Below, in pieces: positions 15,950 to 47,229 of a DNA stretch of 64,000 nucleotides. The stretch is from Candidatus Latescibacterota bacterium (GTDB taxonomy: Bacteria > Latescibacterota > UBA2968 > UBA8231), in contig OZ252098.1 of assembly GCA_965248355.1 (NCBI GenBank), forward strand, positions 992,001 through 1,056,000, in the 5' to 3' direction. The translations under genes were made by a program, and so were the position numbers. Numbering within the stretch: the stretch's first letter is position 1; every line of letters starts with the position of its first letter. The notes beneath the pieces are model-generated. The model made no database searches. It was not told the origin of the DNA and saw only the letters and a program-made list of their open reading frames with translations.

Positions 15950-16714
15950 ATGTGCGCATCCCAAATCGGGGCTCAGCTCTACACCGTGCGCGACTTCCTG
16001 AAGACGCCGGACGGCATCCGGGACAGCTTCGGGCGAGTGGCGGAGATGGGGTACGAGGCCGTGCAGTGCTCGGGCCTCGGCCCGATCGATGCGGCGGAGC
16101 TGAGAGCCCTCGCCGACGAAGCCGGTCTGAAGATCGCGGCCACCCACATCGACTTCGACCGCATCCGCCGGGAGCCCCAGGCGGTGATCGAGGAGCACCA
16201 GCTCTGGGGTTGCCGCCACGTGGCCATCGGCGGCCTGCCCGGGGAGTACCGCCACGCCGAAGGATTTGCGCGTTTCGCCCGGGAGGCTTCAATCCTGGTG
16301 CGGCCGCTGATCGACGCCGGCCTGACCTTCAGCTACCACAACCACAGCTTCGAGCTCGAGCGTTTCGGGGAGCGGACGGGCCTGCAGATCCTGGCCGAGG
16401 AGAGCGACCCGGACACGTTTTCCTTCGAGGTCGACACCTACTGGATCCAGCACGGAGGCGGCAACCCGGTCACCTGGATCGAGCGCCTGAGGGACCGCAT
16501 GCACGTCGTTCACCTGAAGGATCTGGCCATGAAGGGCGGCGACCAGCGTTTCGCTGAAGTGGGAGAGGGCAATCTGGAATGGCCCGCCATCCTCGCCGCC
16601 TGCCGCGCCACCGCGATCCAGTGGTACCTGATCGAGCAGGACCGGTGCGACGGCAATCCCTTCGACAGCCTGAAGGTCAGCCTCGACAACCTGCGGGCCA
16701 TGGGCCTGCACTAG
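15950..16714 (+). CDS. Sugar phosphate isomerase/epimerase (xylose isomerase-like TIM barrel)
   Basis: GAQLYTVRD, YHNHSFE, EVDTYW, HLKD, EVGEG, IEQD. Confidence 0.88.
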   Translation: MCASQIGAQLYTVRDFLKTPDGIRDSFGRVAEMGYEAVQCSGLGPIDAAELRALADEAGLKIAATHIDFDRIRREPQAVIEEHQLWGCRHVAIGGLPGEYRHAEGFARFAREASILVRPLIDAGLTFSYHNHSFELERFGERTGLQILAEESDPDTFSFEVDTYWIQHGGGNPVTWIERLRDRMHVVHLKDLAMKGGDQRFAEVGEGNLEWPAILAACRATAIQWYLIEQDRCDGNPFDSLKVSLDNLRAMGLH

Positions 16715-17945
16715 TGGTCAATCCACTTAGAATTGCGGAACAAGAGTGGCAGCCGTATCCTTTTTCCCCATCCCCTTTGTTGGAAAAGGAGTACGGCGTT
16801 GCCCAAGAAGAGATACATCGTCACTCTCACAGCCGAGGAGCGCACCGGGTTGCGCGATCTGATCTCCAAGGGGAAAGCGGCGGCTTTCAAGCAGCGGCAT
16901 GCGCGCCTTCTCCTGAAGACGGATCAAGGACCGCAGGGAGAGGGCTGGACCGACGAACGGATCGGGCAGGCGCTCGAGGTCCATCCCAGCACGGTCGAGC
17001 GTCTGCGCAGGCGATTCGTCGAAGAAGGCCTGGAGGCCGCCCTGCAGCGCAAGGAGCAGAAGAATCGCCGGGCCAAGAAGATCGACGGGGAAGGCGAGGC
17101 TCGTCTCGTCGCGCTGGCCTGCAGTCCGCCGCCGGAGGGGAGAAAGGGCTGGACCCTCCGATTGCTGGCCGACCGCCTGGTGGCCTTGGAAGTGGTCGAC
17201 CGGGTCAGCCCGGAAACCGTCCGAAAGACACTAAAAAAAACGACTTGAAGCCCTGGCGGCAGGAAATGTGGTGCCTGCCGGGCGCCCCCAATGCCGCCTT
17301 CGTCTGTGCCATGGAGGATGTGCTGGATGTTTATACCCGGCCCTACGATCCCCAACATCCCACGGTCTGCCTGGACGAGACCAGCAAACAACTGGTGGGC
17401 GAGGTGCAGGCCCCTCGGCCGGCGATTCCGGGCCATCCGGCCCGGTATGATCATCATTATGTCCGCCAGGGCGTGGCCAACGTCTTCATGATGCTGGAAC
17501 CGCTCACCGGCCGCTGCCACGTCCAGGTCACGCAGCAGCGCACCAAGAAAGATTGGGCTCGGGTGATGAAAGACCTGGTCGACCGCTACTACCCGGAGGC
17601 CGAGCGCCTGACCTTGGTCATGGACAACCTGAGTTCGCACCAGAAGGCGGCGTTGTACGATGTCTTTGCGCCGGCCGAGGCCAAACGCATCGCCGACAAG
17701 ATCGACATTCATTTCACCCCGAAACGGGGCAGTTGGCTCAACATGGCCGAAATCGGGTTGAAGATGCTGTCCCGGCAGTGTCTGGACCGACGCATCGCAA
17801 CGATTCAGCAACTGAGCCAACAGGTCCAGGCTTGGCTGTCGCAACGCGAGAACAGCCAGGCCCCGGTCAAATGGCGATTCACCACCGAGAAGGCGCGCAT
17901 CAAGCTGCACCGCCTCTATCCAGCATTGTTACCTGGATGAACCAC
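16714..17945 (+). mobile_element. IS630-family insertion sequence with TA target duplication
   Basis: Flanked by TA (16712-13, 17946-47) in CTAG context; imperfect terminal IRs GTGGTCAATCCA / GTGGTTCATCCA; DDE transposase inside. Confidence 0.93.
16799..17940 (+). CDS. IS630 transposase, two ORFs joined by -1 frameshift at A8 (17233-17240)
   Basis: ORF1 16799-17248 HTH (WTDERIGQAL, WTLRLLADRL); ORF2 DETSKQ, DNLSSH, SWLNMAEI; CTAAAAAAAAC slippery site. Confidence 0.9.
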
Positions 17946-19999: not shown

Positions 20000-21145
20000 T
20001 CACGGCCGCTCTACTCTCCCAGGTGCGGTCCTCCGCAATCCCTCGCTCTGCCAGCCGCGGCGGTCGTCCAGCATCCCGTCCAGGTCGCGAAGGGCGGAGG
20101 CTACGGCGGCCCGGGGTTCTCGGGCCAAGTCGGCCAGGAGTTCCACGAGTCCGGCCGCGTCCGCCACGGAAATCGCCTCCGGCCGCAGCCCATCCCCGCC
20201 GTGGTTGTGGTAGTTCTCGAGAGGCAGGGCTACCGCTCCCGCGGTGATACCGGCGCGGCACAAGGCCGTCGCTTCGCAGGTCCCACCGTCCATCAGCCGC
20301 CTCTGGTACCGGAATCCGGGCCGCTTCCTCCGCAGTCCTTCGGCCGCCGCGGCCAGGGCTGCGGTGACGGAAGCGTCGAAGACCCAGCGCCGGTCACCGA
20401 CGCGGATGACGGGGCCTTGGCCGAGGGGAGCGCCGGCGCGGCAGGAGGAGCATTCGATGTTGACGTAGAGGGCGCCGGGGTCGAGATGCCCGCCGTCCGC
20501 GGCGGCGAGCATCCCGCCGAAGCCGGTCTCCTCGGCCCGGGTCAGCAGAACGCCGATCCCGTTCCCGTCGGTGTCGTCGGCGCGCAGGAGTTCGAGGACC
20601 GAAAGAGCCACGGCCGCACCGGCCAGATCATCGCAGGCGCGGCCCCGAAGCCTCCGTCCGGACACCTCGAAGCCGGGCAGGTCCCAGGTGGCGAAGGTCC
20701 CTCCTGCCTCGGCCGCGGGAGCCGGGCCGTCCAGGCGCACCCGAAAGGCGGGCCGTGTTCCGGCGTCGCCCGGGACTCCGTCCTCCAGAAAGGCCATGAC
20801 CCGGCCGCTGGCGATCGGCTCGCGGGACTCGTGGCCGTAAGCGAGCACGCGGGCCCCCCGGGTCAACTCGGTTGGAATGCCGCCCAGGGAATGAAAGAAC
20901 CAGTCGCCGCCGTCCCGAGCTGCCAGGGACAGCCCGGGATGGTCGAGGTGAGCGGTGAGGACGATCCCTGGCGGCTCCTTGCCAAGGCGCAGATGGAGGT
21001 TTCCGAAAGGGTCGGCCAGGCAGATCAGGTCGGGCCGCTCTTCGACGAATCGCCGAATCTCCGAGAGGACCAGGTGCTCGTGAAAGGGCGCGGTGGGAAT
21101 GGGGAGGAACCGCCGCGCCATGTGCAGATAGAGATCGGTGTTCAA
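20000..21145 (-). CDS. Cytoplasmic M20/M28/M42-clan zinc metallopeptidase
   Basis: AHLDHPG, RACDDLAG, RAEETG, NIEC, GGTCEA, NYHN: metal ligands intact; no signal peptide. Confidence 0.82.
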   Translation of the reverse strand: MNTDLYLHMARRFLPIPTAPFHEHLVLSEIRRFVEERPDLICLADPFGNLHLRLGKEPPGIVLTAHLDHPGLSLAARDGGDWFFHSLGGIPTELTRGARVLAYGHESREPIASGRVMAFLEDGVPGDAGTRPAFRVRLDGPAPAAEAGGTFATWDLPGFEVSGRRLRGRACDDLAGAAVALSVLELLRADDTDGNGIGVLLTRAEETGFGGMLAAADGGHLDPGALYVNIECSSCRAGAPLGQGPVIRVGDRRWVFDASVTAALAAAAEGLRRKRPGFRYQRRLMDGGTCEATALCRAGITAGAVALPLENYHNHGGDGLRPEAISVADAAGLVELLADLAREPRAAVASALRDLDGMLDDRRGWQSEGLRRTAPGRVERP

Positions 21146-21213
21146 GGGGCTCGCCTTCCGCGGAGGAGAACTGGTTCGAAAGGGTATCCGGCGGCGGTCC
21201 GGGGTCAAGCGGA

Positions 21214-21243
21214 TTGCTCCCGGGGAATCGCGTCGACTACCTT
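21214..21243 (+). promoter_or_regulatory. Putative promoter of first OPT-like paralog
   Basis: TTGCTC-18 bp-TACCTT; conserved with the copy at 23591. Confidence 0.5.
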
Positions 21244-21278
21244 GAGACGCTCCTGGCGGTCAGGAGGCCCGAGGCCGA

Positions 21279-23435
21279 GTGAGAAGAGGGATTCCACAGG
21301 AGTACAGCGACCATCTGGCCACGCGCCGGGAGCGCGTGCTGGGAGGGAGCGGCGAGCGCCTCTCCTTCCGCGCCTTCTGGGTCGGCGGCTTCCTGGCGTT
21401 CTTCCTGGCCGTGGGCGCCCCCTACGGCAACATGATCATCCGCGGGTCCTACATGGCCCTCGACTTCAGCACCCCCGGGGCCATCTTCCTGTTCCTCTTC
21501 CTGATCGGTCTTCTCAACTGCGCTTTCAAGCTCGCCCGTCAACCTTCCGTGGCCATCGGCCTCGCCGGCTCGGCCACGGCGGCGTGGCTGGTGGTCTACG
21601 GGCCGGCCATCACCGACCTCGACTTCTACTCTCCGGGTCTGATGCTGGCCACCTTCCTGGTGCTGACCACGTGGCTCAACCTGCCCGTGGTGCTCCGCGG
21701 CGGAAGCCTGGCCCTGAACCGCTCGGAGCTGGTGCTGGTCTACGCCATGCTGCTCATCGTCTCGGCCTTGTGCACCATGGGCCTGGGCGAGCAGATCCTG
21801 CCCGTCATCACGGCGATCTTCTACTTCGCCTCACCGGAGAACCAGTGGACGGAGAAGCTCTTTCCCCATCTGCCGTCGCGGGCCATGGTCGACGACGGCA
21901 CGGACAGCCGGCTGTTCTACGAGGGACTGTCCGGTCCGGAGGACGTGATACCGTACGCGTCCTGGGTGGAGCCCCTTCTGTGGTGGGGGATCTTTCTGCT
22001 GGCCCTGTACGTGATGATGGTCTCGGTGGCGGTGATTCTGCGCCGCCAGTGGATGGAGCGGGAGCGACTGGCCTACCCGATCGCGCAGGTGGGCCTGTCC
22101 ATGATCCGCTCAGAGCACCCCGACCAGGCGGTCAACGGGTTCTTCAAGCAGCCGGTCATGTGGATGGGGGCGGCCCTGCCCCTTGTCGTCGGCAGCCTGA
22201 AGGCCCTGAACCGCTACTACTCCGCAGTGCCGGTCCCGCCTACGACATGGTCCCTGCCCTTCCTGGGCTACCAGACCCTGCAGCTGACGATCAGCTTCGC
22301 CATGCTCGGGTTCTCCTACTTCATCAACGCCAACATCGCCGCCGGCATCTGGTTCTTCCACCTGTTCTCGAAGGTGGAGAAGCACGCGCTTCTGTTCACG
22401 GGGCTGCAGTCGACCCAAAAAATCACCTTCGGCGTCTCCGACTACCCCTTCCTCGGCTACCAGGGGGTGGGAGCGCTGTTGGCCATGGTGGTCGTCGGCC
22501 TGTGGGTGGGCCGCGAGCACTATTGGCGGGTGCTGCTCAAGGCCGTCGGCCGCGCCCCCGAGGTCAGGGACGACGACGAGATCCTCTCCTACCGGAGCGC
22601 CGTGGCCGGCGGCGCGGGCGGCACTGCCGTCATGGCGTGGTGGCTGTGGTTCATGGGGACTCCCCTGTGGGTGGCCCTGGTGTTCGTCGTCCTGGCCATT
22701 CTGATCTTCATCGGCATCACCCGGATCGTGACCGAGGCCGGCCTGGCGGCCATCCGCGCGCCGATGATCGCAAGCGAGCTGGTGGTCCAGGGGATGGGGT
22801 CCTCCCTGGTTGGCCCCGCGGGGGTGATGAACCTCTCGCTGACCTACATCTGGGCTGCCGACATCCGCGTCTTCGTCATGGCCACGTCCTCCAACGCGCT
22901 GAAGATGATCGAGGAGATGGAGCCCCGGAACCGCCGCATCGTGTTCTGGGCCATGATCGCCGCCATGTTCATCGGGGCCGCCGGGTCCTTGTGGATGATC
23001 TTCCACATGGCCTACCGCCACGGGGGCATCAACCTGGAGAGCTGGTTCTTCCAGGGGCTGCCCCGGACCGCGTACGACGCCGCCGTGCGCAACATCGAGC
23101 CCCAGGGGGCCTACTGGCCGGGGCTGGGCTTCTTCGGCGGAGGCATCGGCGCCATGGTGGCCATGATGTGGCTGCGCCAGCGCCTGCCCTGCTGGCCCGT
23201 CCACCCCATCGGCTTCCCCATAGGCGCCAACAGCATGATGAACTACGTCTGGTTCAACGTCTTCGTGGCGTGGATCGTCAAACGCACGGTGCTGCGCTAC
23301 GGGGGTGCCAGCGCCTACCACGGCAGCCAGCACTTCTTTCTGGGACTGATCGCCGGCCAGGTCCTGTGCAACGGCTTGTGGCTGGTGATCGACTACTTCA
23401 CCGGCAAGGTGGGCAACTCCATCTTCTGGGTATGA
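21279..23435 (+). CDS. Polytopic membrane protein, OPT-superfamily-like (probably DUF6785/DUF6784 type), paralog 1
   Basis: 718 aa, many hydrophobic helices; RRQWMERERLAYP, TRIVTEAG, WPVHPIG, RYGG..Y...FFLGLIAG. Confidence 0.8.
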   Translation: MRRGIPQEYSDHLATRRERVLGGSGERLSFRAFWVGGFLAFFLAVGAPYGNMIIRGSYMALDFSTPGAIFLFLFLIGLLNCAFKLARQPSVAIGLAGSATAAWLVVYGPAITDLDFYSPGLMLATFLVLTTWLNLPVVLRGGSLALNRSELVLVYAMLLIVSALCTMGLGEQILPVITAIFYFASPENQWTEKLFPHLPSRAMVDDGTDSRLFYEGLSGPEDVIPYASWVEPLLWWGIFLLALYVMMVSVAVILRRQWMERERLAYPIAQVGLSMIRSEHPDQAVNGFFKQPVMWMGAALPLVVGSLKALNRYYSAVPVPPTTWSLPFLGYQTLQLTISFAMLGFSYFINANIAAGIWFFHLFSKVEKHALLFTGLQSTQKITFGVSDYPFLGYQGVGALLAMVVVGLWVGREHYWRVLLKAVGRAPEVRDDDEILSYRSAVAGGAGGTAVMAWWLWFMGTPLWVALVFVVLAILIFIGITRIVTEAGLAAIRAPMIASELVVQGMGSSLVGPAGVMNLSLTYIWAADIRVFVMATSSNALKMIEEMEPRNRRIVFWAMIAAMFIGAAGSLWMIFHMAYRHGGINLESWFFQGLPRTAYDAAVRNIEPQGAYWPGLGFFGGGIGAMVAMMWLRQRLPCWPVHPIGFPIGANSMMNYVWFNVFVAWIVKRTVLRYGGASAYHGSQHFFLGLIAGQVLCNGLWLVIDYFTGKVGNSIFWV

Positions 23436-23590
23436 TGACCAGCCGCGGTCGAGCGCCATCGAGGTACGGCCGTCGGGGCCGGGCACCACCTGAGGGTTGC
23501 GGGACATGGCGCAATCCGGGTTCCGTCGGGCCCTCACGCGGGCACCGATGTCACCAGGGCTATCCGGTCGACGCCGCCGGGCCGGGTGAA

Positions 23591-23620
23591 TTGCACTGGG
23601 AGAACCGCGGCGACTACCTT
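23591..23620 (+). promoter_or_regulatory. Putative promoter of second OPT-like paralog
   Basis: TTGCAC-18 bp-TACCTT followed by GAG-CGCT, as upstream of paralog 1. Confidence 0.5.
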
Positions 23621-23658
23621 GAGCCGCTCTCCTGCGTGGTACGGAGGCCAGGGACGAG

Positions 23659-25815
23659 TTGAAGAGAGGGATACCCCAGCAGTACGAGGACCATCTCTCC
23701 GCGCGCCTCGAGCGCATGCTGGGCGGGAGCGGCGAGCGCCTCTCCTTCCGTGCCTTCTGGATCGGCGGCTTCCTCTCCTTCTTCCTGGCCGTGGGCGCCC
23801 CCTACGGCAACATGATCATCCGGGGCTCCTTCATGGCCCTCGACTTCAGCACCCCCGGGGCCATCTTCCTGTTCCTGTTCCTCATCGGTCTTCTCAACAG
23901 CGCCTTCAAGCTCGCCCGGCGGCCTCCCGTGGCCCTCGGTCTCGCCGCCTCGTCCACGGCGGCGTGGCTGGTGGTCTACAGGCCGGCCATCACCGACTTC
24001 GACCTCTACTCCCCCGGTCTGATGATGGCCACCTTCCTGGTGGTGACCACCTGGCTCAACCTGCCCGTGGTGCTCCGCGGCGGCAGCCTGGCCCTGAACC
24101 GCTCGGAGCTGGTCCTGGTCTACGCCATGCTGGTCATCGTCTCGGCCCTGTGCACCATGGGCCTGACCGAGCAGATCCTGCCCATCATCACGGCCATTTT
24201 CTACTTCGCCTCGCCGGGGAACCAGTGGGCCGAGAAGCTCTTCCCGCACCTGCCGGAGCGGGTGATGGTCGACGACGGCACGGACAGCCGCCAGTTCTAC
24301 GAGGGCCTCTCCGGTCCGGAGGAGACGGTTCCCTATGGGGCCTGGGTGGAGCCGCTCGTGTGGTGGGGGATCTTCCTGCTGGCCCTGTACGTGATGATGG
24401 TCTCGGTAGCGGTGATTCTGCGCCGCCAGTGGATGGAGCGGGAGCGCCTGGCCTACCCGATCGCGCAGGTGGGCCTGTCCATGATCCGCTCCGAGTACCC
24501 CGACCGGGCGGTCAACGGGTTCTTCAAGCAGCCGGTCATGTGGCTGGGGGCGGCCCTGCCCCTGGTCACCGGCAGCCTGAGGGGCCTGAGCTTCTATGAG
24601 GCGGTCGTGCCCACGACGCGTCTGGAGTGGCATCTCCCCTTCATCGGCCGCCAGACCCTGCATCTGAGCGTCAACTTCGCCGTCCTCGGGTTCTCCTACT
24701 TCATCAACGCCAACATCGCCGCCGGCATCTGGTTCTTCCATCTCCTCTCGACTGCGGAAAAGCAGTTGCTCATCCTCACCGGGCTGCAGTCGTCCCAGAA
24801 GATCGGTCTCGGCGTCTCCGACTACCCCTTCCTCGGGTACCAGGGGGTGGGGGCGCTGCTGGCCATGGTGGTGGTCGGCCTGTGGGTGGGCCGCGAGCAC
24901 TACTGGCGGGTCCTGCGCAAGGCCGTCGGCCGGGCCCCCGAAGTCCGCGACGACGACGAGATCCTCTCCTACCGGGGCGCCGTGGCCGGGGCCCTGGGAG
25001 GCACCGCCGTCATGACGGCCTGGCTGTGGTACATGGGGACCCCCTTGTGGGTAGCCCTGCTCTTTCTGCTCGTGGCGGTCCTGATCTTCATCGGAATCAC
25101 GCGGATCGTGACCGAGGCCGGCCTGTCGGTCGTCCGCGGGCCGATGATCGCCGGCGACCTCGTGGTCCAGGGAGTCGGTTCCTCCCTGATCGGCCCCGCG
25201 GGGGTGATGAACCTCGCCTTGGCCCACGTCTGGGCCGCCGACATCCGTGTCTTCGTCATGGGCACGGCCTCCAACGCCCTGAAGATGATCGAGGAGATGG
25301 AGCCCCGGAACCGCCGCACCGTGTTCTGGTCCATGATCGCCGCCCTCTTCATCGGCGCCGCTGGCTCCATGTGGATGATCTTCCACATGGCCTATCTCCA
25401 CGGGGCCATCAACCTGAACGGCTGGTTTTTCCAGGGGCTGCCTAGGTACGCCTACGATGCGGCCCTGCGCAACATGGAGCCCCAGGGGACGTACTGGCCC
25501 GGGCTGGGCTTCTTCGGCGGCGGGGCCGGCGCCATGGTCACCCTCATGTGGCTGCGCCAGCGCCTGCCCTGGTGGCCCGTCCATCCCATCGGTCTATCCA
25601 TCGCCGCCACGCCCATGATGAACCGCCTCTGGTTCAACGTCTTCCTGGCCTGGGCGGTCAAGCGAGCCGTCCTGCGGTACGGCGGCGCCACCGGCTACCA
25701 GAGGAGCCAGCCCTTTTTTCTCGGGCTGATCAGCGGCCAGGTCCTGTGCAGTGGAGGCTGGCTGGTGATCGACTACTTCACCGGCAGGGTGGGCAACTAC
25801 CTTTACGAGATATGA
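23659..25815 (+). CDS. Polytopic membrane protein, OPT-superfamily-like, paralog 2 (tandem duplicate)
   Basis: 718 aa, colinear with 21279-23435; stop overlaps the ATG of the next gene (ATGA). Confidence 0.8.
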   Translation: MKRGIPQQYEDHLSARLERMLGGSGERLSFRAFWIGGFLSFFLAVGAPYGNMIIRGSFMALDFSTPGAIFLFLFLIGLLNSAFKLARRPPVALGLAASSTAAWLVVYRPAITDFDLYSPGLMMATFLVVTTWLNLPVVLRGGSLALNRSELVLVYAMLVIVSALCTMGLTEQILPIITAIFYFASPGNQWAEKLFPHLPERVMVDDGTDSRQFYEGLSGPEETVPYGAWVEPLVWWGIFLLALYVMMVSVAVILRRQWMERERLAYPIAQVGLSMIRSEYPDRAVNGFFKQPVMWLGAALPLVTGSLRGLSFYEAVVPTTRLEWHLPFIGRQTLHLSVNFAVLGFSYFINANIAAGIWFFHLLSTAEKQLLILTGLQSSQKIGLGVSDYPFLGYQGVGALLAMVVVGLWVGREHYWRVLRKAVGRAPEVRDDDEILSYRGAVAGALGGTAVMTAWLWYMGTPLWVALLFLLVAVLIFIGITRIVTEAGLSVVRGPMIAGDLVVQGVGSSLIGPAGVMNLALAHVWAADIRVFVMGTASNALKMIEEMEPRNRRTVFWSMIAALFIGAAGSMWMIFHMAYLHGAINLNGWFFQGLPRYAYDAALRNMEPQGTYWPGLGFFGGGAGAMVTLMWLRQRLPWWPVHPIGLSIAATPMMNRLWFNVFLAWAVKRAVLRYGGATGYQRSQPFFLGLISGQVLCSGGWLVIDYFTGRVGNYLYEI

Positions 25816-28800
25816 CGGGACCCGGCTCCAGATTCCTTGTTGCGGCCATGGCCTGGCTGCTGCTGACAGCCCCGGCCTCTGCGGACGGCCCCGACTTGTG
25901 GGCTGTCGCCGATGAGGGGGAGCGTCTGCGGGCGAGCGTGGAGTACCTGTCCACGGTCGGCTCCCGCATCAGCGGACACGAGGGCGCCCAGCGGGCCTCG
26001 GACTGGATCGAGCGGCAGCTGTCGACGCTGGGGTTGGGCCCGGTGCACCGAGAGTCGTTCCAGATCACCGTGCCGGTGGAGTTGGGCGGGCGCAGCCGCC
26101 TGCAGGTCCTCGAGACCGGCGAGGAGCTCGACATCTACGGGCTGTGGCCGAACGGCCCGCGAACGACGACCACCCCGCCCGGAGGCACGGAAGGCCTGCT
26201 CACCTGGGCCGGGGGCGGCGAGTACGCCGACTTCGAGGGGCGGCCGCTGCAGGGCCGCGTGGTGCTGATGGAGTTCAACACCTGGGACCGCTGGGTCCGG
26301 CTGGCGGCCCTCGGGGCCCGGGCCGTGATCTTCATCGAGCCCGAAGAGACCTCCTACCCGCAGACCGAGGACAAGAGCCTCATGGTGCCGGTGGACGTGC
26401 CGCGGTTCTGGATCGACGCAGAGGCGGGCCGGCGGCTTCAGCGGAGATTGCAGGGCGGAGACGAGATCGGCGTCCGCCTGCACAGCCGGATGGACTGGCT
26501 CGAGCGGCCCTGCTCCAACCTCTGGGTCGAGATCAGCGGCGCCGATACGGACCTGGCCGGGCAGCGGATCGTCGTTCAGAGCTACTTCGACGGGACCTCC
26601 ATCGCGCCCTCCCTGGCGCCCTCGGCCGAGGTCTCCAGCGGCGCGGCTGCGATGCTGGAGCTGGCCCGGTACCTGCGGGACCATCCGCCCGCCCGGACGG
26701 TGGTTCTCCTGCTAACGGGCTCCCACTTCCAGGACCGGGCGGGGATCGTCGACTTCCTTGAGCGTCACACCCGCAAGTCCGACTACTACGCTCCTCTCAC
26801 AGACTCGATGGCCGTCGATCTCTTCCTCGGTCTCGACCTGTCCACCAAGACGGATCAGGTGGCCATCTGGAACAACACATCCAGCTTCGATCTCAAGCGG
26901 TTCTACGTCCCCTTCGGGCGGCGGTACACCAGGTACGCCGAGGAGGCGGCCGTCGAACTCGGACGGGCCGGCGAGCCATTGCTGTTGAACGGGATCAGTC
27001 CCATCCGCGGAATGGACTGGTCCACCTTCGTCCCCGACGGCGTCCGCGTCGACGCCCGCATGGCCCTGCGCGCCGGCCAGGTCGCCCTCTCCTTCGTCAC
27101 CGCTCACGACGCCCGCTTTCCCGTGGCCACCCCCCTCGACACGCCCGAGCGCATGAATCTGGACAACCTCCGGAGTCAGTCGCGCTTCCTCAACCGGGTA
27201 CTCTCCCGGTCCTTCGACGACCCGGACCTGTTCACCGGACTCGAGGACTTCGATCCCGTGCTCAAGGACGAGCTGCGCACGCACACCGTTCGGGTGCGGG
27301 GCTTTCCGCGCCGCAGCCAGATCCCCGACCGGCCGGTGGCCGACGCCCTGGTGATGGTGGGGCGGTGGACGCACAAGGGCGTGAACACGAGCCGCGCGTA
27401 CCTCACCGGCGAGCTGGGCGTCGCCACCGTGTCGGGACTGGTCGTCGGGGCCACCTCGGTGGTGGCCCATGTCCTCGACCGGGAGACGGGAGAAGTCGTC
27501 TACGCGCCGGACCTGAGCGAGCGCGCCCAGAAGCACCACGGCAAGCCGCTCGCGAGCGGCCGCATGAACTGGAGCATCCGCTGGAACAAGGACAGCAAGC
27601 CCATCGTCGTGTTCCCGAGCATCCAGAGGACCCTCTTCGGGCTGACCCATCCCAACCAGCTGATCGGGCTGGCCTCCCTGAAGATGATCGACAGCGGCGG
27701 CATCGCGCCTCGCCAGTTCGGGTACGCCTTCGGCCACACCATGAGCAGCAACCTCTGCGTCGTCTTCGCGCCCCAGGAGGCGGCCGCCGAGGATCCCCGC
27801 CTGAAGATGCTCTTCGGGGACATGCTGCTCATCAACAGCCCCGGGGGTACGTCGGAGAAGGAGGCCAAGGGCACCGGCTACGACCTGGCGGTGGACGACC
27901 TGCTGCCCTCCGAGCTCTTCGCCCTGCGGGACACCTGGAGGCTCAACGACGCCCGTCTGGCCACGATGCGCTCCCACGCCATTGAGAACCAGCGAATCAG
28001 CCGGTTGCACGAGGCGGGCCGGCGGTTCCTGGCCTCCGCCGAGAAAGCGCTCGAGGAGGGCCGCTGGCGCGACTACGTGGCCGAGGTCCGGTCGGGCCTC
28101 GGGGTGACCCTGCGCGCCTATCCCCAGGTGAAGGGAACCCTCAACGACGTGATCAAGGGCATCGTCTTCTTCCTGGCCCTGGTCATGCCCACGGCCTTCT
28201 TCGGCGAGCGCCTGCTCTTCGCGGCGGCCGACATCCGCTGGCAGCTCGGGGGCTTCGCCCTTCTGCTCCTGATCGTGTGGACGCTGATCTCCCAGGTCCA
28301 TCCGGCCTTCGACATCGCCCATCCCCTGATCATCCTGCTGGCCTTCTTCATCATGGTCATGGCCGTCTTCGTGATGGCCATGGTCTCGAGCCGGTTCAAC
28401 CGGTTCCTCAAGGAGTACCAGGCCGAGAAGGCGAAGGTCCACCAGACCGACATCAGCCGGGTCAGCGCCACCTACGCCGCTTTCATGCTCGGCATCTCGA
28501 ACATGCGCAGGCGCAGGCTGCGCACCGGACTGACCCTGCTCACCCTGACCTTGCTCACCTTCACGGTCCTGTCCTTCACCTCCTTCCGGCCGGAGATGTG
28601 GTATTTCGTCTTTCCCCTCCGCCACGAGGGATCGTACACGGGGGCCCTGATCCGGGACCGCGGCTGGAGCTCTCTGTCGGAGACCACCCTCGAGTACGCC
28701 CGCTCCCACTTCGAGGAGCATGGCCAGGTGGTCCCGCGGAACTGGTACATCACCTACGACGACGAGGAGAAGAAGTACACGGAGATCCGGCGGGACAGCC

Positions 28801-30263
28801 TCATCGTGCGGGCTACCGGCCTGCTCGGGGTGAGCTCCCGGGAGCAGCGGGTGACCGGGCTGGCCTCGGCCCTTACGGCGGGGAGATGGTTCCAGGACGA
28901 TCACGAATCCACCTGCCTGCTCTCGGACGGCATGGCCGAGGGGCTGGGAATCGGTCCCGGAGATGTGGGCCGGGCCCAGGTCCAGGTCTTCGGCCAGCGG
29001 CTGACCGTGGCCGGGGTCTTCTCGTCCGAGGCCTTCGACGAGGTTCGCGATCTCGACGACGAGCCCCTGAGTCCGGCGGACTTCCAGCTCTCGAGCATGC
29101 AGGCCCTGGGTCCGGTGGAGGGGCCGCAGATGCAGGTGCAGGAGGAGGAGGAGACCTACGAGGTCAGGCCCTTCGTCCACCTCGACCCGGCGAACGTGCT
29201 CATCCTGCCCTACGAGACCCTGAAGGTCTCCTTCGGCGACCTGCGCTCCGTGGCCATCCGGTTCGACGAGGGCGCCCCGGCCCGGGCCCTGATCGAGGAC
29301 TTCCTGCAGCGCATCTCGGGCACGATCTTCGCCGGCCTGCCGGACGAAGAGGGCCGCATCGACGTCGTGTCGTACACCTCTCTGGGCGGCACCTCGGTCG
29401 AGGGTCTGGCGGCCCTGACCGTGCCCATGCTGATCGCGGCCCTCATCGTCCTCAACACGATGATGGGCGCCGTGTACGAGCGCTTCCGGGAGATCGGCAT
29501 CTACTCCTCGGTGGGGCTGGCGCCCATGCACATCGCCCTGCTGTTCATCGCCGAGGCCTGCGTGTACGCGGTCATGGGGGTGACCCTGGGCTACCTGATC
29601 GGCCAGATCCTCGGAAGGTCGCTGGTGCAGTTCGACCTGCTGGGCGGCATGAACCTGAACTACTCCTCCTATGCCGCCATTCTCTCGGCCTGCATGGTCA
29701 TGGGCGTGGTGCTCCTGTCCACCATCTATCCGGCCCGCGTCGCCTCCCGGTCCGCCGTTCCCGACACGGTTCGGCGGTGGCGGCCGCCGCCGCCCGACGG
29801 CGATCGCTGGGCCTTCGACTTTCCCTTCATGGTGGGACAGAGCGAGGTAGTGGGGATCTGCGGGTTCCTGGCCAACTTCCTCAGCGCCTACAGCGAGGAG
29901 TCGATCGGCGACTTCTACGCCGACAAGGTGCGGATCACCACCGAGGAGACGCGCGCGGGCCGGGAGTACGCCGTGCAGCTGCTGCTGTGGCTGGCCCCCT
30001 TCGACATGGGCGTGAGCCAGTTCCTGCAGATCGAGCTGGCGCCCACCTCCACACCCGGCGTCTGCGACGTGCAGATCTACATCCACCGCCTGAGCGGCCA
30101 GGACACCTACTGGCAACGCGTCAACCGACGCTTCGTCAACCACCTGCGCAAGGAGTTCCTGATCTGGCATACCCTCGACACGGAGTCCAAGGCCTTCCAC
30201 GACCAGAGCGCGAGAGAGCGGATGGCGGCTGAGGCCACGACAGCAGCGGAGGCCACGACCTAA
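25812..30263 (+). CDS. Large fusion: signal peptide, PA/M28 peptidase-fold ectodomain (degenerate), extra TM helices, FtsX/MacB-like permease
   Basis: ASA|D signal; SRISGHEG..ASDWI, PA-like GRVVLMEF; ISNMRRRRLRTGLTL, AGRWF, LNTMMGAVYERFREIGIYSSVG..FIAEA. Confidence 0.82.
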   Translation: MTGPGSRFLVAAMAWLLLTAPASADGPDLWAVADEGERLRASVEYLSTVGSRISGHEGAQRASDWIERQLSTLGLGPVHRESFQITVPVELGGRSRLQVLETGEELDIYGLWPNGPRTTTTPPGGTEGLLTWAGGGEYADFEGRPLQGRVVLMEFNTWDRWVRLAALGARAVIFIEPEETSYPQTEDKSLMVPVDVPRFWIDAEAGRRLQRRLQGGDEIGVRLHSRMDWLERPCSNLWVEISGADTDLAGQRIVVQSYFDGTSIAPSLAPSAEVSSGAAAMLELARYLRDHPPARTVVLLLTGSHFQDRAGIVDFLERHTRKSDYYAPLTDSMAVDLFLGLDLSTKTDQVAIWNNTSSFDLKRFYVPFGRRYTRYAEEAAVELGRAGEPLLLNGISPIRGMDWSTFVPDGVRVDARMALRAGQVALSFVTAHDARFPVATPLDTPERMNLDNLRSQSRFLNRVLSRSFDDPDLFTGLEDFDPVLKDELRTHTVRVRGFPRRSQIPDRPVADALVMVGRWTHKGVNTSRAYLTGELGVATVSGLVVGATSVVAHVLDRETGEVVYAPDLSERAQKHHGKPLASGRMNWSIRWNKDSKPIVVFPSIQRTLFGLTHPNQLIGLASLKMIDSGGIAPRQFGYAFGHTMSSNLCVVFAPQEAAAEDPRLKMLFGDMLLINSPGGTSEKEAKGTGYDLAVDDLLPSELFALRDTWRLNDARLATMRSHAIENQRISRLHEAGRRFLASAEKALEEGRWRDYVAEVRSGLGVTLRAYPQVKGTLNDVIKGIVFFLALVMPTAFFGERLLFAAADIRWQLGGFALLLLIVWTLISQVHPAFDIAHPLIILLAFFIMVMAVFVMAMVSSRFNRFLKEYQAEKAKVHQTDISRVSATYAAFMLGISNMRRRRLRTGLTLLTLTLLTFTVLSFTSFRPEMWYFVFPLRHEGSYTGALIRDRGWSSLSETTLEYARSHFEEHGQVVPRNWYITYDDEEKKYTEIRRDSLIVRATGLLGVSSREQRVTGLASALTAGRWFQDDHESTCLLSDGMAEGLGIGPGDVGRAQVQVFGQRLTVAGVFSSEAFDEVRDLDDEPLSPADFQLSSMQALGPVEGPQMQVQEEEETYEVRPFVHLDPANVLILPYETLKVSFGDLRSVAIRFDEGAPARALIEDFLQRISGTIFAGLPDEEGRIDVVSYTSLGGTSVEGLAALTVPMLIAALIVLNTMMGAVYERFREIGIYSSVGLAPMHIALLFIAEACVYAVMGVTLGYLIGQILGRSLVQFDLLGGMNLNYSSYAAILSACMVMGVVLLSTIYPARVASRSAVPDTVRRWRPPPPDGDRWAFDFPFMVGQSEVVGICGFLANFLSAYSEESIGDFYADKVRITTEETRAGREYAVQLLLWLAPFDMGVSQFLQIELAPTSTPGVCDVQIYIHRLSGQDTYWQRVNRRFVNHLRKEFLIWHTLDTESKAFHDQSARERMAAEATTAAEATT

Positions 30264-30267
30264 GGCC

Positions 30268-32964
30268 ATGGCCGAGAACGGAAAGCAGAGCCTGCGCCAG
30301 CGGCTGCGCAGGAGCCAGTGGCAGGAGGTGGAGGAGTACCGCGCCCTGCTGGAGCCCGCCGAGCAGTTCGAGAGCGGCTTCACCATGCGCACCATCATCG
30401 GCGTCATCTTCATCTCCCTGGTCATGACCCCGGGGGAGATGTACCTGGGCCTGGTCACCGGCGGGGGCATCGGCGCCGCGGCCCAGTGGGTGACGGTGAT
30501 CCTCTTCCTGGAGGTGGCCAAGCGGTCCTTCACCTCCCTGCGCCGCCAGGAGATCTACCTGCTGGTGTACGTGGCCTCGGCCCTGGTGGCCCGGGAGGAG
30601 GGGGCCTTCCTCGACCTGCTCTTCCGCCAGTACTTCGTGCGCTCCGCCGAGGCCGAGCAGTTCGGCATCTCCAAGCTGCTGCCGTACTGGTACGTGCCCC
30701 ATCCCGAGTCGCCCGCCCTGGCGGCGCGCACCTTCCTGCACCGCGACTGGCTGTGGCCCATCGCCCTGCTGATCATGGGAACCATCGTCGGCCGCATAAG
30801 CTGGTTCACCTCCGGGTACCTCCTCTTCCGCCTGACCTCGGACCGCGAGCGCCTGCCCTTTCCCACGGCCCCCATGTCGGCCCTCTCGGCCATGGCCCTG
30901 GCCGAGGAGAGCGGCGGGGAGAAGGAGACCTGGAAGTGGCCCGTGTTCTCCCTGGGAGGGGTCATGGGCGCCCTCTTCGGCATGATCTACGTGGGCATCC
31001 CTACCCTCACCGAGGTCCTGCAGGGAAAGAAGATCACCCTCATCCCGATCCCCTTCTGGGACCTCACGCCGTACTTCGGCAACCTGCTGCCAGCCGCGCC
31101 CATAGGGATCACCCTCCACCTCGGGATCATCTTCGGCGGCCTCCTGGCCCCGTTCTGGGGGATCGTCGGGTCCAGCGCCGGCGTGATCATGCACACCGCG
31201 GTGAGCCCCATCCTGCACGCCCACGGCCTGCTGCCGAGCTGGTCCCTGGGCATGGACCTGATCGGCACGTCCATCGTCACCGGGATCGACTTCTGGAGAG
31301 CCTTCTCCATCGGCATCACCATCGCCGTCACTATCATCAGCTTCTACCAGCTCTTCGCTACCGCCCGTCAGCGGCGGCTGTCAACGCGCGACGAGTTCCT
31401 CGGGGAGCGGCGCGAGTACCCGCGGACCTGCGTCCACGACGGCTGCAACGCCCCCTCCCAGGTGCGCGGCTACTGCCTCAAGCACCTCGGCCGGGGGGAC
31501 TTCAACCTCTGGGTCTGCGTCGTCCTCTTCGCCATGGCCGCCCTCTACCCCATCGTGCTCGCCAAAACCCTCTTCCCGGCCCTGGTGACGACCGGCCTGC
31601 TCGTCGTGTTCTTCGGCATCGCCTTCGTGTACGCGCCCATCATGTCCTTCGTCTCGGCCCGTCTCGACGGCCTCATCGGCCGCGAGGTGTCGATCCCGTA
31701 CATCAACGAGGCCATCATCTTCCTCACCGGGTACCGGGGCGTCGACATCTGGTTCGTGCCCTTCCCGACCCGCAACTACGGAGGCCACGCCGAGGGCTTC
31801 CGCGTCGTCGAGCTGACGGGCATGCGCTTCACCAGCCTGCTGCAGGCGGAGCTGTTCATGCTGCCCATCGTCTTCGGCGTGAGCCTCATGTACTGGAGCT
31901 TCCTGTGGCGCCTCGGCCCGATACCGTCCGAGAGCTATCCCTACGCGCAGCTCATGTGGCCGCTGCAGGCCTTCAACCAGGCCTTCTACTACTCCAGCAC
32001 GATGTACAACAAGATGTGGCGGGCGGGAGAGGAGGTGGACGGGCGCCGCGTCGACGGGGGGGAGGTGGTCTGGAGCCCATCCAACCTGCAGGACCGGGAA
32101 TGGTGGTACTGGCGGGTGCGGGTCACGGACGACGTGGAGGTGCCGGACGCGGAGAGGCGTGATTACGGCCCGTGGTCGAAGACGGGGTACTTCTACACGA
32201 ACTTCGGTGACGGCACACCGCCGTCAGGCGTGCCGGAGCGCGTCCTCGACGCCCTCGCCGACGTGGCGCGGAGAGCGGAGATGAAGGCTCACCCGTCTCG
32301 AGCCCCGCCTGAACCGGCAGCCGCCGAGCCCAAGGCCGAGTTGCTCTGGCCCGCCCCGGGCGAGGTCGTGGCCACGCCGAATCCCAACTTCCACGCCCGC
32401 GTGCCGGCGGTGCCGGACTCGCTCGAGCTCTACTTCGAGGTGGACAGGCTGCCCACCTTCGACGGGGAGTGGCTCCAGCGCTCCACGGACTGGCCCCTCA
32501 TGTTCCTGGCCTTGTGGCGTGACGTGCGCTACACGGGCGACCGGCGCGACAACGACGGCGACGGCCTCGTCGACGAGGAGCTCTTCAACCTGGCCGACGA
32601 CGATGGCGACGGGGTGGCCGACGAGGACTTCCGTCACCCCCTCGACGGCTGGAAGTGGCCCATCATGGTCTTCGGCGCCGGCTTCGGATTGGTCATGTAC
32701 TTCGGCCTCTCCTTCCTCGGACTGCCCGTCTTCCTGATCTGGGGGTACGTGCAGAGCGTCCTGGGTATCCCCACCAGTCTCCTGCCCCAGATCTTCGGGG
32801 CCCTCCTCGCCCGGTTCTACTTCTGGAAGCGCTACGGCAGGCAGGAATGGCGCCGCTACGCCATGGTGCTGACCGTCGGCTTCGGTGTGGGCATGTCCCT
32901 CATCGGCATGTTCTGCGCCGCCCTGGCCATGGTCAGCAAGGCGGTCTCGGCCCTGCAGTACTGA
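30268..32964 (+). CDS. OPT-like peptide-transporter membrane protein with Zn-finger, FN3-like and acidic inserts
   Basis: FESGFTMRTIIG..MYLGLVTG, ERLPFPTA, many TM helices; inserts CVHDGC..RGYCLKH, YWRVRV..GPWS, DNDGDGLVDEE. Confidence 0.78.
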   Translation: MAENGKQSLRQRLRRSQWQEVEEYRALLEPAEQFESGFTMRTIIGVIFISLVMTPGEMYLGLVTGGGIGAAAQWVTVILFLEVAKRSFTSLRRQEIYLLVYVASALVAREEGAFLDLLFRQYFVRSAEAEQFGISKLLPYWYVPHPESPALAARTFLHRDWLWPIALLIMGTIVGRISWFTSGYLLFRLTSDRERLPFPTAPMSALSAMALAEESGGEKETWKWPVFSLGGVMGALFGMIYVGIPTLTEVLQGKKITLIPIPFWDLTPYFGNLLPAAPIGITLHLGIIFGGLLAPFWGIVGSSAGVIMHTAVSPILHAHGLLPSWSLGMDLIGTSIVTGIDFWRAFSIGITIAVTIISFYQLFATARQRRLSTRDEFLGERREYPRTCVHDGCNAPSQVRGYCLKHLGRGDFNLWVCVVLFAMAALYPIVLAKTLFPALVTTGLLVVFFGIAFVYAPIMSFVSARLDGLIGREVSIPYINEAIIFLTGYRGVDIWFVPFPTRNYGGHAEGFRVVELTGMRFTSLLQAELFMLPIVFGVSLMYWSFLWRLGPIPSESYPYAQLMWPLQAFNQAFYYSSTMYNKMWRAGEEVDGRRVDGGEVVWSPSNLQDREWWYWRVRVTDDVEVPDAERRDYGPWSKTGYFYTNFGDGTPPSGVPERVLDALADVARRAEMKAHPSRAPPEPAAAEPKAELLWPAPGEVVATPNPNFHARVPAVPDSLELYFEVDRLPTFDGEWLQRSTDWPLMFLALWRDVRYTGDRRDNDGDGLVDEELFNLADDDGDGVADEDFRHPLDGWKWPIMVFGAGFGLVMYFGLSFLGLPVFLIWGYVQSVLGIPTSLLPQIFGALLARFYFWKRYGRQEWRRYAMVLTVGFGVGMSLIGMFCAALAMVSKAVSALQY

Positions 32965-32971
32965 CAGCCCC

Positions 32972-34078
32972 TCAGGGGTGCTCTCCGGGACTCGCCATGC
33001 CATTGGCCCGCGGTCCCTTTTCCCGGCGCGAGCGGCGGCGCCGCTGCAACATGGTCGGAAGTCCGACGGCCAGGTAGGTGAGGTTGGCCAGGGCGTGGAC
33101 GGTCGTGGCGCAGGCCATGGCCGCCGCCAGGGGCACGGCGAAGAGCACGTGGAGGGAGTATCCGTAGAAGTAGTGGTATGGCCCCGTGCCGGCCGGCGCA
33201 GGGATCACCACCCCGATGGACGAGACGGCCATGACGACGAGGGACTCCGCCGCCCCCAGGACCCAGGGCGGGCGGTCGAAGCCGAAGGCCACGTACGACT
33301 GGTAGATGATCATGATGTACGCCAGGTTCAGCAGACAGGAGCTGACCAGGATCTCGAGGCAGGCGGAGGCGGAGCGGAGGGCCAGGAGTCCCTCGACGAA
33401 CCTTTCGAGCATGCCGCCCGCGCTCGAGGCCAGTCTCGGGGACACGCGGCCCAGCAACAGCTCAAGCGTGGAAACTCCGCGGTTCCCGAAGGCGTAGGCG
33501 AAGGCCATGCCGCCCACCACGAGAACGCAGACGGCGAGGACGCAGAGCGTGACCTGGTCCAGGGAAAGGCTCAGGGTGAGCCCCCAGAGGGTTGTCTCCC
33601 AGGGAAAGAGAGTGGCCATGCGTCCCGGCACGAGGACCAGGGAGAGAGCCAGCAGGGAGGCGAGGCACAGCAGGTCCAGCGCGCGCTCCACGACCACCGT
33701 GCCGAGGACCGCGCTGACGCTGGCGTCGCGGCGCCACTTGAGGCTCAGCGCCCGCGCCGCTTCTCCGGCCCGGGGAAAGACCAGGTTGGCGCTGTAGCAG
33801 ATGCCCAGGGCCAGAGTGGCGTCGACCACGGTCACCGCGGGCGCCACCGGGCGCAGCAAGACCACCCAGCGCCACCCGCGCAGCAGGAGGGTGAGAACGG
33901 TGGTGCCCGCCATGGCGGCCATCCACCACGGCGAGACCGCCCGCGCCGCCGTCCATAGGGACGCCCCGTCGATCCCCTGAAAGGCCCAGTAGAGGAAGAG
34001 GGCCATCAGGCCGAAGCCGACCGCGTATCGGGTGAGGCCCTTCACGCGGCGGCCCACCTCGAAGGGGCCCCGGTCCAC
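32972..34078 (-). CDS. Lysylphosphatidylglycerol synthase TM / flippase-like (UPF0104) membrane protein
   Basis: RGWRW..LL, NLVFPRAGEAAR, GTVVVERALD, IPAPAGTGPYH. Confidence 0.85.
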   Translation of the reverse strand: MDRGPFEVGRRVKGLTRYAVGFGLMALFLYWAFQGIDGASLWTAARAVSPWWMAAMAGTTVLTLLLRGWRWVVLLRPVAPAVTVVDATLALGICYSANLVFPRAGEAARALSLKWRRDASVSAVLGTVVVERALDLLCLASLLALSLVLVPGRMATLFPWETTLWGLTLSLSLDQVTLCVLAVCVLVVGGMAFAYAFGNRGVSTLELLLGRVSPRLASSAGGMLERFVEGLLALRSASACLEILVSSCLLNLAYIMIIYQSYVAFGFDRPPWVLGAAESLVVMAVSSIGVVIPAPAGTGPYHYFYGYSLHVLFAVPLAAAMACATTVHALANLTYLAVGLPTMLQRRRRSRREKGPRANGMASPGEHP

Positions 34079-39605: not shown

Positions 39606-39606
39606 G

Positions 39607-40095
39607 TCATTCGGGCTCTGAGCCCCGCAGCCTTCGCCAGCCGTTGATCAGGAAGCGCAGGCCCATGCCGGCGAACACGAAGGGAAAGACGAGCTGGGCG
39701 ACCCAGGCCGGCATGCCGGGGAAGGCCTCGGCTCCGTAGGCCCGCTCGTCGAGGACGAAGCGCAGGGCGATGGGGGCCAGGATCCCGCAGAGGACGGCAC
39801 CGGTCAGGTCACCGAGGGCACCTGCGGTACGCTGCCAGCGGGAGGGGAGCAGACGCAACACCGCGTCGATGCGGATGTGCCGGTCCTGTCGGGTCGCGAT
39901 CAAGGCGCCGAGAAAGCTGGACCAGAGAACGAGGTGACGCAGCAGCGGATCGGCCCAGAACCAGGTCACCTGGAACAGATTGCGCATCAGGATCTGCGCG
40001 AAGGCGAGACCGAGGAGGCAGGCCACGAGGGCGACGAGAACCGCCTCCTCGGCGCGTAGATGGAGGGGCCGGCGCGCCGGGCCGGGGTTCTTCAT
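39607..40095 (-). CDS. TRAP transporter small permease DctQ
   Basis: Four TM helices, QILMRN, WSSFLGA, RHIRID; ATGA overlap with dctP. Confidence 0.88.
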   Translation of the reverse strand: MKNPGPARRPLHLRAEEAVLVALVACLLGLAFAQILMRNLFQVTWFWADPLLRHLVLWSSFLGALIATRQDRHIRIDAVLRLLPSRWQRTAGALGDLTGAVLCGILAPIALRFVLDERAYGAEAFPGMPAWVAQLVFPFVFAGMGLRFLINGWRRLRGSEPE

Positions 40096-41994: not shown

Positions 41995-42096
41995 GATCGG
42001 ATCTCTGCGAAGCGGGGGTACGATCAGGAAGAGGGAAGTGCGGAATGGTGCTTCGATTCTCGCGCAAGCCATAATATCAGCAGCATCGGAAGATCG

Positions 42097-43149: not shown

Positions 43150-43300
43150 GGTCCGGTCCAACCCGCCCCATCCCCTGGCCCTTCTCGCCCAAGGAGCGGT
43201 ACGCCTTCTCTCGGTCACCCGGGGCAGCCGCCGTGACGTGAGATACGGGAGTTCTCCACCGGATCGGGTCGCCTTCCGAAAGGCTGCGCCCCGGGCAGCA

Positions 43301-47152: not shown

Positions 47153-47229
47153 GGGCTATTAGCTCAGCTGGATAGAGCGCTTGCCTCCGGAGCAAGAGGT
47201 CACAGGTTCGAATCCTGTATAGCTCACCA
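47153..47229 (+). tRNA. tRNA-Arg(CCG)
   Basis: GGGCTAT/ATAGCTC acceptor, anticodon arm CTTGC-CTCCGGA-GCAAG, GGTTCGAATCC, CCA. Confidence 0.96.

Follow-up and report, generated by a model that had tools for sequence, protein, structure and literature searches.

A remodelled M28 peptidase fold as the predicted head of a MacB/FtsX-type membrane protein in Candidatus Latescibacterota

The gene under study lies on the plus strand at positions 25812-30263 of a 64,000-nucleotide stretch of DNA (the window) from a Candidatus Latescibacterota bacterium (contig OZ252098.1, positions 992,001 to 1,056,000, assembly GCA_965248355.1), and encodes a membrane protein of 1483 amino acids, here called P0001. 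As judged from the alignments described below, its N-terminal head is a PA plus M28 fold that lacks both the catalytic Glu and the canonical co-catalytic zinc site. The residues that replace them are under strong purifying selection, and the site is remodelled rather than decayed. The explanation that we favour, with confidence a little above even, is that the domain acts as a non-catalytic periplasmic recognition head on a MacB-type module that lacks an ATPase gene, and that it works with importer-like partners.

On this explanation, a bacterial aminopeptidase with a PA domain would have been the ancestor of the head, and its two-zinc centre would have been rebuilt into a conserved polar pocket, putatively composed of Tyr258, Glu273, His305, Asp342, Asp260, Asp433, Arg435 and Asp443. 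Removal of N-terminal residues would most likely have been lost, a ligand being recognised in the periplasm instead. The head would be mounted on a single MacB/FtsX ‘mechanotransmission’ module without an ATPase gene of its own, and the protein would cooperate with two DUF6785/DUF6784 proteins and with an 898-residue protein (p898), all importer-like.

Pseudo-peptidases of the M28 fold are known from eukaryotes, namely the transferrin receptor (TfR), nicalin and nicastrin, and the head family forms a large prokaryotic counterpart (1614 clusters at 50% identity, E ≤ 0.001). It offers a natural test of a His at the general-base position of the M28 fold, and points to an undescribed membrane machine with transporter-like partners. 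This work puts numbers on how strongly the replacement residues are conserved and shows that the His at the general-base position is invariant. It also documents the D>N>A drift at position 439 and the contrast within one genome between FtsX genes with and without a nearby ATPase gene, and it surveys the genes that flank the DUF6785 paralogs. In literature searches whose coverage mostly left out subscription journals, no published description of DUF6785/DUF6784 was found, no report of an FtsX-M28 head fusion (judging by titles and the starts of abstracts), no account of the family among papers on orphan permeases (judging by titles), and none that considers TfR, nicalin and nicastrin jointly as M28 homologues other than peptidases.

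Fold and residue map of the head

A preliminary description of the window had presented a stand-alone M28-like ectodomain at 25912-27210. From the open reading frame and its translation, this range corresponds to residues 34-466 of P0001, and position 25912 itself is out of the gene's frame, being the ATG of an overlapping open reading frame of 118 amino acids. The ectodomain is actually the head of a 1483-residue MacB/FtsX-type protein encoded in a four-gene membrane operon. The ATG of the head gene at 25812 shares the tetranucleotide ATGA with the stop of the upstream gene, and the length of 1483 residues recurs in three close homologs.

Comparison of the whole of P0001 with the Pfam M28 model (PF04389) gave 16.4 bits against a cut-off of 21.3, and covered profile positions 1-64 of 193 only. 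The head domain alone scored 18.8 bits, still under the cut-off, and the model matched 23 of 26 short relatives at E ≤ 0.01. Searched as a single sequence against the PDB, P0001 matched 2ek8 at E 0.018. A profile of 100 family members matched the bacterial PA-M28 aminopeptidases from Aneurinibacillus AM-1 (2ek8, E 2.3e-25) and Bacillus subtilis (YwaD, 6hc6, E 5.3e-23), then nicalin (9.9e-11), the Aeromonas (Vibrio) proteolytica aminopeptidase (AAP, 1.3e-10), TfR (3.1e-5) and nicastrin (1.4e-3). The same ranking was obtained with a second profile made from the 26 short homologs. The Pfam Nicastrin model matched a single one of the 26 relatives, at 0.002, and the Pfam TfR dimerisation domain gave no match to P0001 at E ≤ 1. 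The likeness to TfR and nicastrin that had been proposed earlier is not borne out by this ranking, which is led by active bacterial enzymes, and these comparisons place the head outside the lineages of TfR, nicalin and nicastrin.

Four canonical M28 domains encoded in the same genome, which show the ligand pattern H.D / DN / EE / D / H, provided an internal control. The family core aligned with them over 216 columns (hhalign Prob 99.5%, E 3.4e-21). An open frame of 1596 amino acids at one canonical M28 gene (genome position 2299310) was considered and discarded as a chance frame extension; its start is not protein-like and there is no start codon before residue 181.

The PDB-profile and hhalign alignments yielded one identical residue map. 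The six strings quoted in the preliminary description are all present in the translation (IVVQSYFDG at residue 253, PSAEVSSG at 270, TGSHFQ at 302, LGLDLS at 339, TAHD at 430 and VATPLDT at 438), and those that it had read as M28 motifs map onto the M28 site. Tyr258 occupies the position of the first His ligand, Glu273 that of the bridging Asp, His305 that of the general-base Glu, Phe306 that of the ligand Glu and Ala439 that of the last His ligand. The Asp of the HxD motif, the ligand Asp and the Asp of HTxxD are kept as Asp260, Asp342 and Asp443, respectively. Of the five zinc ligands, then, one is exact (Asp342) and one is conservatively replaced (Glu273). The LGLDLS Asp had been singled out as the only one retained, and Asp342 is indeed the sole exact canonical ligand; the bridging Asp, described as lost, is absent as such but has been exchanged for a Glu.

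A PA-like module is present, as had been noted, although it does not precede the M28 domain but is inserted inside its fold (residues ~101-235). Its residues could be matched at high posterior probability with the PA region in 2ek8 and in YwaD. The Pfam PA model matched 4 of the 26 relatives (best 2.5e-6) and gave no match to P0001 itself at E ≤ 1.

The closest solved relatives, 2ek8 and YwaD, have the same domain order as the head, and the alignment to them extends from the N-terminal element across the PA insert and through the first half of the core. These enzymes are soluble and active, with the set HxD / D / EE / D / H, whereas P0001 has Y / E / HF / D / A and is tethered to a membrane module of 700 residues. 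In the alignment to AAP, which includes the chain 2anp, His305 falls on the general-base His of 2anp; that chain keeps all five zinc ligands, in contrast to P0001. Like P0001, TfR1, nicalin and nicastrin carry an M28-derived ectodomain without a working zinc site on membrane machinery. TfR also shares the PA domain, and nicalin the loop ‘YD..SV.P.L..GA[DE]’. All three differ from P0001 in membrane anchor, partners and replacement residues, and none is specifically close.

Of the hallmarks of an M28 peptidase, P0001 displays homology to the fold and lacks the ligand set, the general base and a Pfam score above the cut-off. The name ‘M28 family peptidase’ is borne by 2 of 18 named homologs and by one Planctomycetota cluster. 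The warning in the preliminary description that automated peptidase annotation would be wrong is supported by such names; P0001 itself falls below the Pfam cut-off. The family as a whole calls for caution with this name.

Conservation and remodelling of the site

Conservation was examined in alignments of 121 close homologs and then of 249 core-covering sequences, out of 267 collected, reaching down to ~30% identity. The canonical residues Glu305, Glu306 and His439 occur in 0/249. Counted per homolog, canonical ligands number none in 3 sequences, one in 215, two in 30 and three in 1. His305 is found in 247/247 and forms the most conserved column of the core, for which the median column entropy is 2.17 bits. 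Nearly as constant are Asp260 (248/249), Asp443 (246/248), Arg435 (245/249), Asp342 (243/249) and Asp433 (237/249). Column 258 contains Tyr in 217 and His in 15 of the 249 sequences, column 273 Glu in 215 and Asp in 20, and column 439 Asp in 186, Asn in 41 and Ala in 8. Position 306 is Phe, His or Tyr, with His in paralog group B and Phe in the other groups. The PA insert has invariant residues of its own, W112-P113-N114, K188 and R198. The earlier claim that the catalytic residues are lost is correct for the canonical residues, but ‘dead’ is too simple a description of a site whose substitutes are so strictly conserved.

Mean column entropy was 1.93 bits in the M28 core and 1.87 in the PA insert, compared with 2.15 in the periplasmic core domain of the membrane module and 2.25 in the middle region. 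Because the replacement residues are fixed and the head is no less conserved than the other extramembrane parts, the site appears to have been rebuilt and kept under selection. Decay of a functionless peptidase relic, which would account for the loss of four of the five ligands and the catalytic Glu and for the Pfam score below the cut-off, is contradicted by this conservation, by replacement residues that are invariant over 249 homologs to ~30% identity, and by the distribution of the family, which was found, with several paralogs each, in 138 of the 151 genomes sampled from the phylum. This explanation was rejected as scarcely credible.

A tree of 252 heads (FastTree, midpoint root) placed P0001 in a clade of 6 leaves (support 1.0), all with Ala439. 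This clade is nested in one of 35 leaves (support 0.988), in which the other 29 have Asn, and which itself lies among Asp-bearing sequences. The carboxylate at the position of the last ligand was given up stepwise, D>N>A, on the lineage of P0001, which is difficult to reconcile with a metal bound there. The four paralogs of the genome bear the same signature, and one of them retains His at 258.

Since every one of the 249 sequences lacks the two ligands specific to the first zinc (306 being Phe, His or Tyr and 439 being Asp, Asn or Ala), a di-zinc centre cannot be rebuilt. The preliminary description had allowed that the His of GSHF or of TAHD might restore one; the residues present cannot form it. 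A single-metal or His-based site made from Tyr258, Glu273 and Asp342, at the positions of the second-zinc ligands, together with the adjoining His305 of GSHF, is conceivable. That the domain binds its substrate rather than cleaving it, as had been put forward, is what we would also infer from the sequences.

The polar residues might merely hold the fold of a purely structural or protein-contact module, which would position or gate the partner proteins in the manner of nicalin (ER translocon accessory complex) or nicastrin (gamma-secretase). Nicalin matches the core as well as AAP does and has the longer ‘YD..SV.P.L..GA[DE]’ loop too, Asp260 and Asp443 are general residues of the M28 fold, and fusions of the head to DUF6785 (see below) indicate close physical association. 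Upkeep of the fold fails, however, to explain an invariant His in place of the catalytic Glu, or the conservation of Asp433, Arg435 and the PA residues Lys188 and Arg198. Variation at 306 by paralog group and the drift at 439 in P0001's group would fit, weakly, a role in specificity. A structural module of this kind is considered rather unlikely.

The membrane module, its operon and its partners

The C-terminal half of P0001 matched Pfam MacB_PCD (PF12704) at residues 905-1073 (E 4e-7, 30.9 bits against a cut-off of 27) and FtsX (PF02687) at 1202-1313 (E 1.1e-11, 45.2 bits against 25.5). With the family profile, this half matched MacB (5lil, 4.6e-16), YtrF (3.8e-13) and LolC (1.6e-8) in the PDB. 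These matches identify it as a bona fide FtsX/MacB-type permease without an ATPase partner in cis. The head is predicted to lie outside the membrane, in the periplasm, in agreement with FtsX topology. The Type VII ABC permeases MacB, LolC/E, FtsX and YtrF share with P0001 the four-helix FtsX unit and the MacB-like periplasmic core domain; P0001 differs from them in having no ATPase gene in cis, three extra helices, a head of 750 residues and an additional C-terminal domain. Neither the middle region (residues 471-778) nor the conserved C-terminal tail of 170 residues matched a Pfam family, and the middle region reached Atlas scores of 0.80 at most, to unnamed clusters.

The NCBIfam model for ADOP, ‘duplicated orphan permease’, gave a weak match (E 6e-4). 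No internal duplication of P0001 was found when helices 779-860 were compared by hhalign with transmembrane helices 2-4 of the FtsX unit (Prob 0.2%), and a second FtsX unit hidden in those helices was rejected. In a longer comparison, the sole strong match consisted of the 26 residues common to both overlapping sub-alignments. Two members of the family, P0220 (2769 amino acids) and P0231 (2930 amino acids), have the head at residues ~1150-1570 of a far longer protein, which suggests that further fusion architectures exist.

In the genome (5.5 Mb, one contig), 60 matches to ABC ATPase domains were counted, and 26 to FtsX domains. An ABC ATPase domain lies within 6 kb of 21 of the 22 ordinary FtsX matches, whereas the nearest one is 184 kb from the P0001 gene and 19-102 kb from its three paralogs. 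At loci from other genomes, an ABC ATPase was present within ~2 kb in only 1 of 10.

These distances bear on the possibility of an FtsEX-type regulator, whose FtsX module would be powered by an FtsE-like ATPase encoded at an unlinked locus, and whose head would serve to activate or tether a cell-wall hydrolase in the periplasm. The FtsX and MacB_PCD domains, a segment ERxxEIG aligned to MacB and the 60 ABC ATPase domain matches of the genome all speak for it. Set against them are the lack of a nearby ATPase gene at 4/4 paralogs and at nine-tenths of the other loci, and Pfam scans of the operon in which no EnvC-, PcsB- or amidase-like gene was found. Moreover, the constant partners are large polytopic membrane proteins, and four paralogs per genome together with 26 DUF6785 genes are more typical of nutrient systems. 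A regulator of the FtsEX type is regarded as improbable.

The head gene comes third in a tight cluster of four plus-strand genes. Two tandem DUF6785+DUF6784 genes, whose products are 81% identical (583/716), precede it, and the p898 gene follows. Each of the four head-FtsX paralogs in the genome is followed by a p898 homolog (4/4), and DUF6785 adjoins head-FtsX at 2 of these 4 loci, out of 26 DUF6785 genes in total. Of ten loci taken from other genomes within the phylum, 7 have p898 directly after the gene, 6 have DUF6785 next to it or fused with it, and at least one of the two is present in 10/10. Fusions of DUF6785, head and FtsX, of ~2100 amino acids, make up 9 of the 120 homologs listed. 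Among the 151 sampled genomes, p898 was found in 137: 137 genomes have both head and p898, both are missing from 13, which belong to a single family, and the one remaining genome (57% complete) has the head alone; these genomes are kin, and the co-occurrence amounts to few independent events.

Some of these loci have features of their own. The paralog D locus (C1:5114497-5129578) has Mutator-family transposase genes on both sides and an IS3-type HTH/rve pair upstream. At locus L013 (G072:C1:2342226-2362225) two head-FtsX genes alternate with DUF6785 (DUF-head-DUF-head), and no p898 gene was found within the 20 kb examined.

Contigs assembled from RNA libraries in two studies matched parts of the operon at 95-100% identity. 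One (25554-26418) runs from the second DUF6785 gene into the head gene, and another (29851-30506), with zero differences, from the head gene into the p898 gene. These contigs hint at transcription of the operon, and carry-over of DNA could also give rise to them. Positions 26555-26991 were uncovered in all four runs and 26992-27428 were touched by X18 only (depth 0.59); such contigs cannot show absence. A scan for promoters and terminators over 20900-33300 was uninformative, with 1 promoter-like site (0.8 expected from shuffled sequence) and 6 terminator-like sites (3.5 expected).

The nearest Atlas cluster to p898 is automatically named ‘Peptide transporter family protein’ (score 0.90). The sole match in the genome to Pfam OPT (PF03169) is the C-terminus of p898 paralog B, at 21.8 bits, under the cut-off of 25.8. 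Two proteins from other genomes, one a p898 homolog (28.6 bits) and the other a DUF6785/6784 protein (28.7 bits), matched the OPT model C-terminally, barely above that cut-off. When p898 was compared with DUF6785, hhalign gave 43% (E 2.5e-4) with a common ‘ERL-x-[FY]-P’ motif, and 19% with other alignments. DUF6785 had no match among PDB sequences and p898 only noise, and neither was named by NCBIfam. Taken together, the partners look like solute importers, and may be distant relatives of the OPT/Yellow-Stripe-like family. The p898 consensus also contains a Cys/His knuckle, ‘P..C.H..C......RGYC..HLGRGDF’, at residues ~385-412, and an acidic stretch, ‘D.D.DG..DEE…DDDGDG..DED’, at residues ~755-790 that resembles a calcium-binding motif.

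The cargo was addressed by a survey of the 41 open reading frames that flank the 22 stand-alone DUF6785 paralogs of the genome. About 14 of the 41 encode enzymes for the breakdown of sugars, sugar acids or nucleosides (among them GlcNAc 2-epimerase twice, enolase-superfamily twice, BNR twice, lactonase, GH43/32 and nucleoside hydrolase), and 4 are peptidase-like. This would suit DUF6785 as a large unstudied importer family with varied cargo. Peptide as the specific cargo was downgraded on the strength of this survey.

If the partners are importers, the remodelled pocket (Tyr, Glu, His and Asp, with Arg435, Lys188 and Arg198) could be a receptor for a small anionic, metal-chelate or peptide ligand, which would be handed over to OPT/Yellow-Stripe-like permeases, the MacB-type module serving as a mechanical link to a proton-driven importer. 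This more specific proposal is a tentative one, and its probability is put low. Were it true, it would define a new class of binding-protein-dependent uptake assembled from exporter parts and widespread in several poorly studied phyla.

Several observations count against a non-catalytic recognition head coupled to importers. An invariant His305 together with Glu273 and Asp342 is also what would be expected of a surviving one-metal or His-based catalytic site. Indeed the AAP chain 2anp, which is the best AAP match, has a His at the general-base position (‘AAHE’, compared with ‘saHF’ in the family), and the E151H enzyme is reportedly called ‘functional’ in the title of Bzymek 2005. As regards the membrane module, the ERxxEIG segment aligns with MacB, in what we take to be the MacB coupling helix, and an ATPase may be encoded elsewhere in the genome. 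As regards the partners, the OPT matches were not reproduced by hmmscan at E ≤ 0.01, hhalign against 12 true OPT proteins gave only 2.3% for DUF6785 and 4.1% for p898, and kinship of the partners to OPT is not established. A peptide cargo is a guess, because the stand-alone DUF6785 genes are mostly flanked by sugar-type enzymes.

The first of these observations leads to the alternative that the head is still an enzyme, either with a single metal held by Tyr258, Glu273 and Asp342 or metal-free with His305 as general base; its role would be to process a periplasmic substrate, by trimming or modification, ahead of uptake. In addition to the invariant His305 and the acidic residues at two ligand positions, the relatives with His258 (15/249) or Asp273 (20/249) would be in keeping with such a site. 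On the other hand, neither of the ligands particular to the first zinc is retained in any homolog (0/249), position 439 is relaxed to Ala in P0001's clade, and we know of no M28-fold enzyme with a residue set of this kind, which also counts against catalysis. A surviving enzyme is therefore conceivable but on balance unlikely, and a recognition head that has lost peptidase activity remains the reading that we prefer.

Feature coordinates and other genes in the window

The features of P0001 and of the neighbouring genes are collected in Table 1. The divergent M42-family aminopeptidase gene upstream of the operon has a counterpart at the same position in 2 of the 10 other loci, and its association with the operon is possible but weak.

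Table 1. Positions in the window of the P0001 gene, its parts and adjoining genes
Feature	Position	Strand	Basis
Whole gene, 1483-aa membrane protein	25812..30263	+	open reading frame, translation, ATGA overlap, homolog length
Residues 1-24, signal-peptide-like segment (…LLLTAPASA/DG)	25812..25883	+	judged by eye
Residues 25-100, N-terminal element of M28 fold, approximate borders	25884..26111	+	aligned to 2ek8 residues 7-90 and YwaD
Residues ~101-235, PA-like insert	26112..26516	+	high-posterior alignment to PA region of 2ek8/YwaD
Residues 236-470, M28 core with remodelled site	26517..27221	+	hhalign Prob 99.5%, E 3.4e-21; PF04389 16.4 bits
Tyr258-Phe259-Asp260 replacing His-x-Asp	26583..26591	+	profile alignments and hhalign
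Glu273 replacing bridging Asp	26628..26630	+	profile alignment and hhalign
His305-Phe306 replacing Glu-Glu (general base and zinc ligand)	26724..26729	+	profile alignments and hhalign
Asp342, sole canonical zinc ligand kept	26835..26837	+	aligned to ‘NYDM’ Asp of canonical M28 and to nicalin Asp
Asp433-Ala-Arg435, family-specific conserved pair without M28 counterpart	27108..27116	+	homolog alignment
Ala439 replacing last His ligand, then Thr-Pro-Leu-Asp443 (M28 Asp retained)	27126..27140	+	profile alignment and hhalign
Residues 471-778, middle periplasmic region	27222..28145	+	no Pfam family; best Atlas score 0.80, unnamed clusters
Residues 779-860, three hydrophobic helices preceding FtsX unit	28146..28391	+	hydropathy scan
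Residues 901-1313, MacB/FtsX-type module: transmembrane helix 1, periplasmic core domain, transmembrane helices 2-4	28512..29750	+	Pfam and PDB profile matches
Residues 1314-1483, conserved C-terminal region, presumably cytoplasmic	29751..30260	+	no Pfam family; kept across homologs
Two tandem DUF6785+DUF6784 membrane-protein genes	21279-23435 and 23659-25815	+	Pfam 1e-109 and 1e-27
p898, 898-aa polytopic membrane protein	30268..32964	+	four bases past head gene stop
M42-family aminopeptidase gene, divergent upstream	20000..21208	-	PF05343 E 9e-16

Elsewhere in the window, a DDE_3 transposase open reading frame (16579-17940, E 6e-24) lies between a gene for a xylose-isomerase-like TIM-barrel protein and a LarA-like (Lar_N) gene. 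A TRAP-type transporter set (DctP, DctM and TAtT) on the minus strand at 38298-44065 adjoins genes for a PF10023 ‘putative aminopeptidase’ and a TPR protein. A tRNA cluster at 47153-48658 comprises Arg(CCG), Pro(GGG), Pro(CGG) and Gly(CCC).

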